Of a DNA stretch of 64,000 nucleotides, positions 41,798-47,189 are shown one piece after another; positions within the stretch are counted from its first letter, which is position 1; every line of letters starts with the position of its first letter. The notes beneath the pieces are model-generated. The model worked only from the letters and a program-made list of their open reading frames with translations, was not told the DNA's origin and ran no database searches. Position numbers and translations under genes: made by a program. Origin of the DNA: Eledone cirrhosa. Its lineage: Eukaryota. The DNA lies in NCBI GenBank assembly GCA_964016885.1, contig OZ024743.1:29450001-29514000 (forward strand), written 5' to 3'.

Positions 41798-42824
41798 TAA
41801 GTATGTACACGTACATATATATATGTATACAGACTTACAGTAGTATGTATATATATATATATATACATACATGCACACATATATATATGTACGTATGGAT
41901 TCACCGAATATTTATTATAATGCTCGATGTGTTTGTAAAAAACATCCCGTATTAAGCCGTAGTGTCTAGCAACCATCGTTGCTCGTTTGTTCAACACTGC
42001 CAAAGGAACGCTGAACTAGTTTCAAGCTTATTAGCTATCGTCAGCAACGTATACCTTCCTGCCAGATTGTTGAATGTATATACTTACCTTATGCATATTA
42101 ACGGCTGAGTAGTCCAATTTGCATATCGAGTGGGTTAATCGGCCGGGAGCTCCGAAAACGATAAACGGAAAAAATGAAACGAAATTTCATTTCCCACTCT
42201 TAGTACGGCTGTTACTTAAATATAAGTATGTACACGTACATACATATATGTATACAGACGTACAGTAGTATGTATATATATATATACATACATGCACACA
42301 TATATATATATGTACATATGGATTCACCGAACATTTATTATAATGCTCGGTGTGTTTGTAAACAAACATACCGTATTAAGCCGTAGTGTCTAGCAACCAT
42401 CGTTGCTCGTTTGTTCAACACTGACAAAGGAACGCTGTACTAGCTATCGTCAGCAACGTATACTTTCCCGCCAGATTGTTGAACGTATATACTTGCCTTA
42501 TGCATATTAATGGGTGATTGGCCCAATTTGCATATCAATGGTGTTAATCGGCCGGGTGCACCGAAAACGATAAACGGAAAAAATGAAACGAAATTATGGT
42601 TGCTAGACACTACGGCTTAAGACGGGATGTTTGTTTACAAACACACCGAGCATTATAATAAATGTTCGGTGAATCCATACGTACATATATATATGTGTGC
42701 ATGTATGCATATATATATACATACTACTGTACGTCTGTATACATATATGTATGTACGTGTACATACTTATATTTAAGTAACAGCCGTACTAAGAGTGGAA
42801 AATGAAATTTCGTTTGATTTTTCC
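41798..42824. repeat. ~420-bp hammerhead-containing repeat (family 2), locus A: ~1.9 units then inverted partial unit from 42596
   Basis: Unit repeats at 41801/42226; 42596-42824 is the reverse complement of the unit; TA tracts on both sides. Confidence 0.9.
42008..42050 (-). ncRNA. Minimal type-I hammerhead ribozyme, family 2
   Basis: ACGUUG-CUGACGA-U AGCU AAUA AGCU U-GAAA-CUAG-UU-CAGCGU. Confidence 0.82.
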
Positions 42825-43872
42825 ATATATATATATATATATATATATGTGGGTGTGTGTGTGTATATATATATATATATATATATATATATATATATAT
42901 ATATATATATATATATATATATAAATGAGGCTAATCAGCCAATGTACATTGGTGTCAAGACTATATGTTTATATTGTGTTCCAGCAGAGAGTCCGACGAT
43001 AGTAAGAAACGATGATGTCGTCATCTTCAGTTACCTAACCTTTGTTTCTGCCCGAATGCGGTAGATAGCGCTATGGGAAGCCACACATGGTAGATCAAGA
43101 GGGCAGCCCCATGCTACGTTACTTGAGCAGGATTATAAAGACATGAATCTTCCATAGAATGAACTCACAGATGCCGAGCTGGATAGGGACAAGTGTAGTA
43201 GTATATCTATCAAAGGTTTCCGAGGAATCTCGACGTAATGAAGATGAAATTGATATATATATATATATATATATATATATATATATATATATATATATAT
43301 ATATATATGTATATATGTATATATATATATATATATATATATATATATATATATATATATTTGTGTGTGTGTGTGTGTGTGTGTGTGTTCATGTGTGTGT
43401 GTAAACATTTATGCGTACATACTGGATTTGTAGTCATGCCAGTTGTGTATGATTCCCTTAATTCCTTAAATCTGAGATGTTTGTTTGTTTACTCGCATAT
43501 TACTAAAACCGTCATCCTGTAGAAGGGTTAAAAATGAAGACTATGACATTAAGATAATGCTCAATGTTATTCCTTTCTACGTATATATCAATATAAATAT
43601 ATTTCATACAGAGTAGAAACTCATCTACTTTAGAAATCAAATTATCTTCGTCCTTAACATGATGTGACAGTCAGACATCTCATTATAGACAAGAGGTAGT
43701 TGTGAACAGTATCATTAACGGAGCAATGGAAGCAAATGGGTTTTAACATAAATTTTATAAACTTATATTGATCTATAACTATTAATATTTACATAGATAT
43801 ATATTTACACACACACACGCACACACATACACACACAACATATATATATATATATATATATATATATATATA

Positions 43873-44807
43873 CTAGTAGCAGTACCCAGCGTTGCCTGGG
43901 TGGGTAAAATAATATCTGCTTTGATGAAAAGGTGTTGATCTTAGCGACTGTTTCTCGATGACTCATCTATGGCCACACAGGCCATACGGAGGAGGTTGGT
44001 GATGACCTCTATCACTGAGAAACGCGGGGGACTGACGAAGGGGCAGGGAGGTAATGACCTCTTACACTAATTTCCTCACGATGAATTCTCAAATACAGTA
44101 CTAAAAGCTCAGACAACGTCAGTGGCCATCGTTTATCCTTTGACCATCTATAAGATGTGCAATGATAGGTTCTATCGTAGTATAAAAGTTGAACCAAATA
44201 AATTGATTTATGTGGGAGCTAGAGCCGAAAGTGTGGAAATTTGAGTGAAAAGGTGGTATTTTCGAATATACAAACGGCTGCCACGCCGTTCCTGAACAAA
44301 AAATCCAAAATATAAAGGCACTTTAAGACGTGGAATAATCAGATCTAGCGTAATGTGAAATTTGAACAAAGTAGGTTGATTAATGTGGGAGCTAGAGCCG
44401 AAAAAGTAGAAATTTGAGTATAAAACTGGTATTTTTGAATATTTAAGCGGCTGCCACGCCGTCCCTGAACAACAAATAGAAAATATAAAGCAAATACAGG
44501 ATGTGCAATGATCAATTCTATTTTGCTTTAAAATTTGAACGAAATCGGTGGCAAAATGTGGGAGCTAGAGCCAAAAGTCTTATTTTTCGTTACCTAAAGA
44601 AAGGTGATCCCTCTATCGATTTTTATCTGCAGATTGACCCTGGAATAAAAAAAAAACGATACGCTGATATATAGAAAACACTCCCCGATGACTAATCTAT
44701 GAGCCTGTAAAGTTTCATGAAAATCGGTCGTAAGATGTAGGCCCCTATAGGTAATACACATACACCCCGTCCCCCACACACACATCTTTATTTCATATCT
44801 ATACAGA
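43873..44807 (-). mobile_element. Non-autonomous Helitron (Lep1-like) with internal 173-bp tandem repeats
   Basis: 5' TC at 44807-44806, 3' CTAG at 43876-43873, subterminal hairpin ACCCAG GCAACG CTGGGT (43884-43901), inserted at A|T in (TA)n; TGTGGGAGCTAGAGCC at 44211, 44384, 44557. Confidence 0.8.
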
Positions 44808-46231
44808 TATATATATATATATATATATATATATATATATATATACGGAAAATTGAATTAGAAGGTTTCACCGTTTATTGACTACAGAACATACTTTAAT
44901 ATTAGGGCATATGAACGTATGTATATATATATATATATGTGTGTGTGCATATGAACCTATATATTTGTATGTACATGAATGAACTCATACACGCAGACAT
45001 ATAATAATAAAGACAATTGTAATGGAGAAGCAGATGTTTGATAATTACAGGGATGAACTTAAAATCATCGTATTCAATTTTTTAATTATTTGGCTTTGAT
45101 ATTATCACAGATGAGGTTTTGAAGCCATGAATGCTGGAAGTGAACATTTCACCAATTTTGCATAACAATACCCCATTAGGCTACCAATGTTGTGAACAGT
45201 CACATAGAAAATAATCAGTATAAATCACCTAACAAAATTTGTCCCGATAAGCGTCTGTACAGTACCTTTACGTCAGCTAATGAAAAATCAAATAACTCCC
45301 ACTACACACAGCGCAGATAAGATACAAAATTCAGCAGACTATCTGCCAACATATTGCCAACATATAACATTCGAACTTTGATTTTGACTCTTGATGAAGA
45401 AAAGTGATATGGAAAATGCCAACACATATATGAGGTTTTTTTTTAACACCCTCGATACAGTAAATAGCAACTAGATCAGTGGTTATAGCGCTCCCACAAG
45501 ACAAATACCCTATATATATATATATATATATATATATATATATATAAACGGAAAAAATGAAACGAAATTTCATTTCCCACTCTTAGTACGGCTGTTACTT
45601 AAATATAAGTATGTACACGTACATACATATATGTATACAGACGTACAGTAGTATGTATATATATATACATACATGCACACATATATATATGTACGTATGG
45701 ATTCACCGAACATTTATTATAATGCTCCGTGTATTTGTAAACAAACATCCCTTATTAAGCCGTAGTGTCCAGCAACCATCGTTGCTCGTTTGTTCAACAC
45801 TGACAAAGGAACGCTGTACTAGTTTCAAGTTTATAACCTATCGTCAACAACGTATACCTTCCTGTCAGATTGTTGAACGTATATACTTACCTTATGCATA
45901 TTAACGGCTGAGTAGTCCAATGTGCATATCGAGTGGGTTAATCGCTGGGTGCACCGAAAACGATAAACGGAAAAAATGAAACGAAATTTCATTTCCCACT
46001 CTTAGTACGGCTGTTACTTAAATATAGGTATATACACGTACATACATATATGTATACAGACGTACAGTAGTATATATATATATATACATACATGCACACA
46101 CATATATATATGTACGTATGGATTCACCGAACATTTATTATAATGCTCGGTGTGTTTGTAAACAAACATCCCGTATTAAGCCGTAGTGTACAGCAACGAT
46201 TGTTGCTCGTTTGTTCAACACTGACAAAGGA

Positions 46232-46274
46232 ACGCTGTACTAGTTTCAAGTTTATTAGCTATCGTCAGCAACGT
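46232..46274 (-). ncRNA. Hammerhead ribozyme family 2 (core intact, one stem II mismatch)
   Basis: ACGUUG-CUGACGA-UAGCU AAUA AACUU-GAAA-CUAG-UA-CAGCGU. Confidence 0.7.
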
Positions 46275-46682
46275 ATACTTTCCTGTCAGATTGTTGAACG
46301 TATATACGTACCTTATGCATATTAACGGCTGAGTAGCCCAATTTGCATATCGAGTGGATTAATCGGCCGGATGCTCCGAAAGCGATAAACGGAAAAAATG
46401 AACGAAATCTCATTTCCCTGGATACTACGGCTTACTACGGGATGTTTGTTTACAAACACACCGAGCATTATAATAAATGTTCGGTGAATCCATACGTACA
46501 CATATATATGTGTGCATGTATGTATATATATATACATACTACTGTACGTCTGTATACATATATGTATGTACGTGTACATACTTATATTTAAGTAACAGCC
46601 GTACTAAGAGTGGGAAATGAAATTTCGTTTCATTTTTTCCGTTTATCGTTTTCGGTGCACCCGGCCGATTAACCCACTCGAT

Positions 46683-46690
46683 ATGCAAAT
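46683..46690 (+). promoter_or_regulatory. Octamer ATGCAAAT upstream of the family 2 HHR
   Basis: Exact motif ~67 nt upstream of the HHR, at the position homologous to family 1. Confidence 0.45.
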
Positions 46691-46756
46691 TGGGCTACTC
46701 AGCCGTTAATATGCATAAGGTAAGTATATACGTTCAACAATCTGAGAGGAAGGTAT

Positions 46757-46799
46757 ACGTTGCTGACGATAGCTAATAAGCTTGAAACTAGTACAGCGT
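46757..46799 (+). ncRNA. Minimal type-I hammerhead ribozyme, family 2
   Basis: ACGTTG CTGACGA T AGCT AATA AGCT T GAAA CTAG TA CAGCGT; GUA triplet, predicted cleavage after 46793. Confidence 0.85.
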
Positions 46800-47189
46800 T
46801 CCTTTGTCAGTGTTGAACAAACGAGCAACGATGGTTGCTGGACACTACGTCTTAATACGGGATGTTTTTTTACAAACACACCGAGCATTATAATAAATGT
46901 TCGGTGAGTCCATACGTACATATATATATGTGTGCATGTATGTATATATTTATACATAATACTGTACGTCTGTATACATATATGTATGTACGTGTACATA
47001 CTTATATATATATATATATATAAAATTGGAATTGGTGCTCTGAAATAGCGACATATATATGAACGCATATATAGTGTATTTTGCAATACACTGTATGCTT
47101 AATTAAAAGCATTTCGAAGACCTTACGTTATTGTTTTAGAGTAGTGACAGTCTCACTTACTTTACATTTTCAACAATCAGGGGAGATAA

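Follow-up and report, generated by a model that had tools for sequence, protein, structure and literature searches.

Head-to-head hammerhead repeats with fixed ends in TA microsatellites: probable copying of a 421-bp retrozyme by a Penelope-like enzyme

Loci A and B in the 64-kb stretch of DNA analysed here (hereafter the window) are separate insertions of one abundant 421-bp repeat, family 2, which apparently has no ORF and carries a predicted hammerhead. Taken as a whole, the data are probably best explained if family 2 is copied into TA microsatellites by the reverse transcriptase (RT) and endonuclease of a Penelope-like element (PLE), with a dimer-dependent predicted ribozyme and head-to-head arms with fixed ends. 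That a PLE enzyme carries out the mobilisation is very likely; that the template is circular (or re-read end to end) is moderately so.

The arm ends mapped in the window place locus A at 41792-42822 and locus B at 45544-47010, within a few bases of the positions given in the initial annotation (41798-42824 and 45546-47006), and the unit, estimated there at about 420 bp, has a measured period of 421 bp at both loci (Table 1). Hammerhead units had also been placed at both loci, where they are indeed present, but the loci are not simple tandem repeats. Each consists of two inverted, head-to-head arms embedded in (TA)n, and the right arm of locus A lacks a hammerhead. The earlier reading is supported but incomplete, in that it overlooked the inverted arms and their fixed ends of PLE type. 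Both insertions are ordinary, partly decayed copies, and no rare variant is common to the two arms of either locus A (0/5) or locus B (0/19).

Table 1. Arms, hammerheads and related features in the window. Unit positions in family 2 are numbered from the predicted cleavage point.
Feature	Position	Strand	Remarks
Family 1 insertion, 467-bp unit, 6.3 + 2.1 identical units	19557..23489	.	Head-to-head; X left, Y right; related lineage outside loci A and B
Locus A left arm, 1.9 units	41792..42595	-	Outer (3') end at site X in (TA)n; inner end at unit position 248
Hammerhead, type I, intact motif, GUU triplet	42008..42050	-	In locus A left arm
Hammerhead with 15-nt deletion taking out stem II and GAAA	42432..42459	-	In locus A left arm; predicted dead
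Locus A right arm, 0.56 unit, positions 26-264, no hammerhead	42586..42822	+	Stops 9 nt before site Y, in (TA)n
Locus B left arm, 2.1 units	45544..46418	-	Outer end at site Y in (TA)n; inner end at position 239
Hammerhead with C3U, stem II damaged	45811..45853	-	In locus B left arm
Hammerhead, core intact, one stem II mismatch	46232..46274	-	In locus B left arm
Locus B right arm, 1.4 units, from position 45	46418..47010	+	Outer end at site X in (TA)n
59-nt tail spanning end sites X to Y	46588..46646	+	Predicted hairpin; family 1 also has a predicted one
ATGCAAAT octamer	46683..46690	+	Kept in every subfamily examined
Hammerhead, type I, intact, GUA	46757..46799	+	In locus B right arm; predicted cut after 46793

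An exact 35-nt motif of the repeat gave 5,488 matches genome-wide, on many contigs, against 0 for a reversed control, and is therefore not due to chance. Family 2 is best read from its sequence features as a non-LTR retrozyme: it combines tandem units, low GC, a type I hammerhead in each unit and a dispersed multi-copy distribution. The arms showed no PLE protein similarity, and their layout is without LTRs. The proposal that the flanks align with family 1 outside the hammerhead was borne out. The tail and 3' part are identical at 98/140 positions (z 13.6, 0/1000 dinucleotide shuffles as high) and the 5' part at 70/105 (z 3.7, 7/1000 as high), and the TA-rich part gave z 6.2 (1000 dinucleotide shuffles). 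Homology and covariation both support the idea of one shared retrozyme lineage. The count of two diverged subfamilies is too low; there are more, with monomers of 467, about 421-430 and about 484 bp plus further ribozyme variants, and CUAG-type motifs in all of them together number 40,103 genome-wide. The octamer ATGCAAAT has a putative promoter role by analogy with snRNA genes; no literature support was found for an octamer promoter in hammerhead repeats. Scars of RNA editing were considered as well and amount to at most a weak hint. The array-repeated variants of family 2 comprise 21 A>G and 30 T>C, and the common variants 13 A/G and 5 C/T (p 0.10). In family 1 the counts were 28 versus 14 when unpolarised (p 0.04), and 18 A>G versus 11 T>C when polarised (p 0.19).

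The motif reported for the two loci, ACGUUG-CUGACGA-UAGCU/AGCUU-GAAA-CUAG-UH-CAGCGU, is present and has the type I form, with a CUGANGA/GAAA core, an NUH site and helices I-III. There are five hammerhead-bearing family 2 units in the window, four of them on the minus strand, and the motif is intact in two. In the intact plus-strand copy, helix I has 6 bp, helix II has 4 bp on a U.U, and helix III is one A-U pair with a palindromic CUAG loop. The stems were said to differ from those of family 1 and yet to stay paired. This holds for most of the structure: 91.8% of cells are paired versus 36-49% in slid controls, in counts that ignore relatedness, and 10/21 pairs of the alignment changed on both sides. 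It does not hold for the first pair of stem II (10.1/11.1). The G10.1-C11.1 pair at the helix II base was not found in family 2, which has U.U instead, whereas the family 1 hammerhead keeps it; 10/16 aligned rows are unpaired there. A U.U variant at this position is described as cleaving in PMC7229834. Core and palindrome are intact in 161/187 motifs. Subfamilies that are 62-74% identical to one another still share the core and the pairing, so the ribozyme fold is apparently under selection. The monomer, when folded as a circle, has a predicted MFE z of -7.7 with 71% paired (40 shuffles). A search of the window against Rfam gave no family at gathering thresholds.

The family 2 ribozyme is predicted to be dimer-dependent. 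As helix III forms only between two copies in this model, an assay on 46757-46799 alone would be a poor test and would likely give a false negative. According to PMC7229834, axolotl HHR_Amex1 has the same one-pair helix III with a palindromic tetraloop, HHR_Amex2 has the same U.U at the helix II base, and each cleaves weakly as a monomer but efficiently as a dimer; family 2 combines the two weak features that are split between them. When compared by motif form, the tandem repeats of newt satellite 2, schistosomes and cave crickets, as described in PMC7229834 and PMC4209133, also resemble family 2. Their hammerheads are canonical type I and dimer-dependent, with a helix I of 6 bp, a helix II of 4 bp and a short helix III with a palindromic loop, but they have the conserved G10.1-C11.1 pair.

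The insertion ends were analysed in a census of 92 loci. Of 142 scorable outer ends, 118 lie at site X or Y, 59 nt apart in family 2, although the X/Y windows make up 7.6% of the unit; 24 lie at neither. One X is paired with one Y in 34/37 two-armed insertions with both ends assigned (p 6e-8), and TA runs adjoin 97 of the 118 X/Y ends. The layout is head-to-head at 52/92 loci, with a tail-to-tail neighbour at 1, and 40/92 loci have one arm only. At homologous sites, family 1 follows the same rule (43/45 ends and 14/14 pairs). Two-armed insertions reach up to 10 units and read unit into unit over all 421 bp. Central joins show an overlap of 4 nt or more in 13/34 clean cases versus 2.8% at random, and rare variants are common to both arms 19 times versus a control mean of 1.1 (maximum 5).

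This footprint, an inverted 5'-truncated arm, a tail at one end and a microsatellite target, is by analogy of the PLE-mobilised type. An inverted 5'-truncated copy with a tail at one end is given as the PLE signature in PMC8557442 and PMC3846280, and in PMC11167929 the tail is the span between two internal RT start sites, both strands being cut and extended. Endonuclease-bearing PLEs of the Neptune/Nematis type and Poseidon, as described in these three sources, share with family 2 the inverted 5'-truncated arm, the tail at one end only, the microsatellite or AT-rich targets and an internal RT start near a stem-loop downstream of the hammerhead. Family 2 differs from them in having no RT or endonuclease, in that both arms may hold several whole units, and in its longer tail (59 nt, and 72 nt in family 1, versus 30-40 nt). 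At its start sites there is TA microhomology to the target; for the anole element, a start without homology is described (PMC11167929).

PLEs are found in the same genome. One of them, L155, with RT and GIY-YIG, has head-to-head arms in (TA)n with one short and one tail-extended end, and its hammerhead has U.U and a palindromic helix III. Long open PLE frames of 938 and 1,096 aa are also present. ORFs with RT and GIY-YIG occur elsewhere in the genome; none was found in the retrozyme arms or consistently joined to them. Among 50 GIY-YIG loci (150 listed, 10,597 candidates), BLAST, profile and tblastn searches gave no match to a helper with ends like those of family 2. Metazoan non-LTR retrozymes, as presented in PMC7229834 and bioRxiv 10.64898/2026.07.22.740005, resemble family 2 in their short AT-rich tandem units, type I hammerhead, apparent absence of an ORF, strongly self-paired predicted fold and coexistence with PLEs, and their range of 170-400 nt is slightly exceeded by the 421-bp unit. 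They are described as tandem repeats only: 'inverted' occurs 0 times in the available text of PMC7229834, as do 'tail', 'head-to-head' and 'junction' in that of the preprint's main text. For them expression and cleavage have been shown; the family 2 ribozyme is a predicted one.

In the mechanism that we propose, arrays would be transcribed, neighbouring hammerheads would pair via ACUAGU and cut, and units of one or more monomers would be closed into circles. The PLE protein would nick both (TA)n target strands, one being primed at X and the other at Y, on either side of the tail hairpin. Both cDNAs would then pass the cleavage site, often run for more than one unit, stop variably and be joined by short homology. 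We suggest tentatively, as quite possible, that one PLE complex holds an RNA circle, made by the hammerhead, by its tail hairpin, starts on both TA strands at the two fixed sites and rolls round from both, which would give two opposed multi-unit arms in one event.

The evidence on a circular template points both ways. In favour of a circle, arms are longer than one unit in 88/144 cases, inner ends do not pile up at the cleavage site (3/144 versus 6.9 expected), and young arrays are homogeneous or exactly periodic, 9/29 arrays showing either homogeneity or a period of 2 or 4 units. On the other side, 20/29 arrays have no period. Haplotype breaks at the cleavage site were sought by a linkage test, which was null (S -0.02, 95% interval -0.15 to 0.11) and of low power, with 18 SNP columns, one of which is an X-end artefact; its bootstrap peaks lie at positions 220-340. 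The few subfamily switches seen are nearer the tail than the cleavage site. For two dimer-period arrays, no donor or sibling closer than 96% was found. Across its junction a circle would read like two tandem units in the genome, so that junction reads by themselves would not tell the two apart. In vitro, 8/9 Xenopus retrozyme dimers are described as not cleaving (bioRxiv 10.64898/2026.07.22.740005). The strongest evidence for a circle comes from family 1, not from family 2.

It is possible, though in our judgement unlikely, that what PLE enzymes copy is linear, multimeric RNA that has not been cut. Integration would then depend little on the ribozyme, and homogeneity and periods would arise by duplication at the DNA level or when new insertions hit older copies at the tail. 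According to PMC11167929, cleavage is dispensable for the one reconstituted PLE, with uncut RNA as the main substrate; insertion in vitro survives mutation of the hammerhead, and the endonuclease of the PLE cleaves the element's own pLTR junction. The null linkage test and the switches near the tail fit a linear template as well, unequal exchange also yields integer periods, and arrays of more than 20 kb (L135, L136) resemble satellites. However, unequal exchange would hardly fix one variant in two opposed arms. Private substitutions at 16 two-armed loci of family 1 speak for a circle: 11 have become fixed in both arms, and none is confined to a single multi-unit arm as a fixed change. The retention of core and pairing across diverged subfamilies also argues against a dispensable ribozyme. 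A different origin for the inverted arm, self-priming (snap-back) of one cDNA or an antisense template, was proposed for rotifer Penelope elements in PMC3846280. Both inner ends fall at the same unit position in 3/52 two-armed loci (L116, L134, L169), in its favour, but they differ, usually widely, in the other 49, where the second arm nevertheless has its terminus at the partner site X or Y; a snap-back copy would not lead one to expect this. We regard this origin as improbable here.

The arms might also be mere 5'-truncated pLTR ends of an autonomous PLE, with no independent retrozyme. Autonomous PLE insertions leave the same footprint, and Xenopus retrozymes are described as derived from pLTRs (bioRxiv 10.64898/2026.07.22.740005). 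This is nevertheless very improbable: the arms run unit into unit through the whole 421 bp, no common upstream sequence was found in the listed 5' flanks of 40 one-armed loci, and PLE protein matches near retrozyme loci are sparse and belong to various families. Inverted arms, TA flanks and long arrays could likewise suggest a DNA-level element (a MITE, a foldback element with terminal inverted repeats, or a satellite) or a fold-back artefact of assembly. Such an origin is hardly credible, since the two termini are offset by a constant 59 nt, there is free variation in how long the arms are and where they join, and the motif lies at thousands of dispersed loci with a covarying RNA structure kept. 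Strand-switch-like joints between arm sequences were also seen in contigs from an independent-method run, which argues against an artefact. One contig set compared, X1, extends through single-copy flank with no difference and so behaves as DNA.

The retrozyme is already known as a class of element. For animal retrozymes, the moving enzyme and circular RNAs as templates are proposed, not shown, in the available text of PMC7229834 and PMC7761336, and the case for a PLE role in that of bioRxiv 10.64898/2026.07.22.740005 rests on co-occurrence and pLTR homology. The insertion ends described here give exact predicted start sites, X and Y, together with the predicted rule that each target strand uses one of the two. 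At about 40,000 related motifs, this lineage also contributes substantially to the hairpin-forming inverted repeats of the genome. If the rolling-circle reading is true, the retrozyme would no longer resemble the ends of its helper, and in the arrays a telomerase-related enzyme would have left a genomic trace of its rolling-circle reverse transcription.

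The initial annotation had described two loci of ~420-bp hammerhead repeats, and both were found in the window as described. Successive predicted cuts in this repeat (family 2) lie 421 bp apart, which is the unit length. Each locus consists of a minus-strand arm, an arm being a run of units in one orientation, followed by a plus-strand arm, with the RNA 3' ends pointing outward into (TA)n. The outer ends lie at two fixed positions of the unit, sites X and Y: the left end at X and the right end near Y in locus A, and at Y and X, respectively, in locus B. Since this arrangement and the central joins both differ, the two loci can be regarded as separate events. 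Hammerhead motifs are found in five units and are intact in two; the others carry a stem II mismatch, C3U, or a loss of 15 nt including GAAA, one each. The repeat adjoining locus B may be another two-armed element.

Coordinates of the features discussed (L-numbers are loci elsewhere in the same genome, with local coordinates)
Feature	Location	Remarks
Locus A	window 41792-42822	
Locus B	window 45544-47010	
Repeat adjoining locus B	window 47023-47790	two direct copies (from ~47023, ~47346), then a partial copy in inverted orientation, with (TA)n at its end
Different high-copy element	window 43880-44790	between loci A and B; 173-bp tandem unit
Further hammerhead-like core	window 11433-11406, minus strand	stem II different; similar motif in L083
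Degraded PLE-protein-like fragment	window 40286-40834	tblastn E 1e-7
Degraded PLE-protein-like fragment	window 1393-1689	tblastn E 2e-10
Open RT + GIY-YIG frame	L141:3809-6622	938 aa
Open RT + GIY-YIG frame	L143:1775-5062	1,096 aa
Different hammerhead element	L149:1676-2002	E 4e-6 (retrozyme profile)
Different hammerhead element	L153:3310-3620	E 9e-5 (retrozyme profile)
Arm ending exactly at predicted cleavage site	L013:1897-2068	directly into (TA)n
Arm ending exactly at predicted cleavage site	L212:1622-1937	
Hammerhead with U.U at helix II base	L154:3266	
Family 2 array, >20 kb	L135, L136 (G000 C1, ~51.772-51.794 Mb)	aperiodic part and exact 4-unit-period part

The predicted ribozyme is of type I, with a helix I of 6 bp, a helix II of 4 bp and a helix III of one A-U pair with a CUAG cap. 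The proposed covariation of the stems was borne out in 16 aligned rows chosen by hand to represent every subfamily; in four of them the upstream flank is truncated, foreign or misaligned. Pairing is seen in 91.8% of the cells (36-49% in slid controls), and both sides have changed in 10 of 21 ribozyme pairs, relatedness being ignored in these counts. One helix I position varies among U-A, U.G, G.U and A-U. Two of five whole-structure measures were no higher than in shuffles. In family 2, position 10.1/11.1 of helix II is U.U; the single-pair helix III has a computed cost of 5.4 kcal/mol in the monomer, and the computed value for self-pairing of ACUAGU is -4.8. Because helix III has one pair, the U.U is present, and axolotl retrozymes with either weak feature show weak cleavage in monomeric form and strong cleavage in dimeric form (available text of PMC7229834 and PMC4209133), the monomer cleavage assay suggested initially would probably fail even with a genuine ribozyme. 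A U.U at the helix II base also occurs in several further hammerhead types near frames of Penelope-like elements (PLEs; L146, L149, L154).

The genome of 3.0 Gb, whose contig C4 includes the window, contains 5,488 exact matches to a 35-nt family 2 motif and 5,217 to the motif of family 1, a related 467-bp unit; a relaxed CUAG-type hammerhead pattern gave 40,103 matches, versus 4 for the reversed control. Family 1 and family 2 monomers are colinear with ~62% identity; identity to family 2 is higher, at 74%, for a third subfamily of ~484 bp. Homology outside the ribozyme was upheld by an alignment that beats dinucleotide shuffles (z of 13.6 for the 3' part with the tail, the span between X and Y, and lower values of 3.7 in the 5' part and 6.2 in the TA-rich part). 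The pattern of tail hairpin, site Y and ATGCAAAT octamer occurs 21,685 times (control, 0). The different hammerhead element of L149 and L153, weakly similar to the retrozyme profile and carrying an octamer in L149, is possibly a distant sister family.

The insertions were surveyed at 92 family 2 loci (35 best BLAST matches, 55 chromosome-ordered motif matches and the two window loci; the neighbours L027 and L029 are perhaps one duplicated event). The arms are head-to-head at 52 loci and single at 40, with a tail-to-tail neighbour at one. Of the outer ends, 142 could be scored: 64 fall at Y, 54 at X and 24 elsewhere. The X and Y windows cover 7.6% of the unit, and a predicted hairpin lies within the 59 nt that separate the two sites. 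Both ends were scorable at 51 two-armed loci and lay at X or Y in 37, as X+Y in 34, Y+Y in two and X+X in one (p 6e-8). In family 1, 43 of 45 ends lie at the homologous sites, all 14 pairs are X+Y, and the tail is 72 nt. Central joins overlap by at least 4 nt in 13 of 34 clean cases, versus 2.8% of random joins, these being BLAST overlaps in which mismatches are possible. In L013 and L212 an arm ends at the predicted cleavage site, either because a cut RNA end was used for priming or because of TA homology by chance.

A typical PLE insertion includes a 5'-truncated copy in inverted orientation, has a tail of 30-40 bp on one side only, and tends to lie in a microsatellite (as described in parts of PMC8557442 and PMC3846280). 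For a reconstituted anole PLE, the available text of PMC11167929 reports cutting and extension on both strands, and a tail that is the interval between two internal RT start sites. An insertion with RT and GIY-YIG elsewhere in this genome (L155) likewise has head-to-head arms in (TA)n, one end short and the other extended; in its hammerhead, helix II has a U.U and helix III is palindromic. Family 2 is thus a genuine and abundant family of predicted retrozymes, and its insertions clearly bear the footprint of PLEs.

Linear monomers that have been cut and are read a single time can be excluded as the main template, because 88 of 144 arms are longer than one unit and inner arm ends lie near the cut in only 3 of 144. 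The two arms of a locus tend to share a source: 19 of 338 rare variants are common to both (control mean 1.1), with none at loci A and B. Among 29 family 2 runs of at least four units, from loci picked partly for likeness to dimers, nine are homogeneous or have an exact 2- or 4-unit period and 20 lack a period. Family 1 arrays diverge by 0-0.7% within loci versus 1.5-5.9% between loci, and of their private substitutions (16 loci), 11 are fixed in both arms and none in one multi-unit arm alone. Against these facts stand a linkage scan without a haplotype break at the cut site, subfamily switches seemingly closer to the tail, a search that found no donor array, and the preference of the anole PLE for uncut RNA (in the part of PMC11167929 available). 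On balance, the homogeneity, the periods and the two-arm fixation suggest that the arrays were likely copied from circular RNA. The L135/L136 array looks like a retrozyme becoming satellite DNA.

The genome holds 10,597 GIY-YIG candidates, and none of the 50 loci examined held a PLE with ends like family 2. RT + GIY-YIG frames reach 1,096 aa, and a cysteine linker joins the two domains, as given for Neptune and Nematis in available text of PMC8557442, which the frames resemble by this linker. The L141 and L143 frames, 44% identical to each other, are candidates for in vitro tests.

PLE mobilisation of retrozymes was proposed in PMC7229834 and PMC7761336, and argued from co-occurrence and homology to the PLE repeat (pLTR) in bioRxiv 10.64898/2026.07.22.740005, as far as the available portions of these sources go. 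Retrozyme insertions with two arms and a tail did not turn up in literature searches, though supplements or figures may include examples; terms for them are absent from the available text of PMC7229834 and of the bioRxiv paper, and the 2026 octopus repeat annotation (PMC13282606) does not mention ribozymes in its available text. In every respect open to test at the sequence level, family 2 works like a non-LTR retrozyme with a predicted ribozyme. Its value is that both the helper, a presumed PLE supplying the enzyme, and the circular template become testable.
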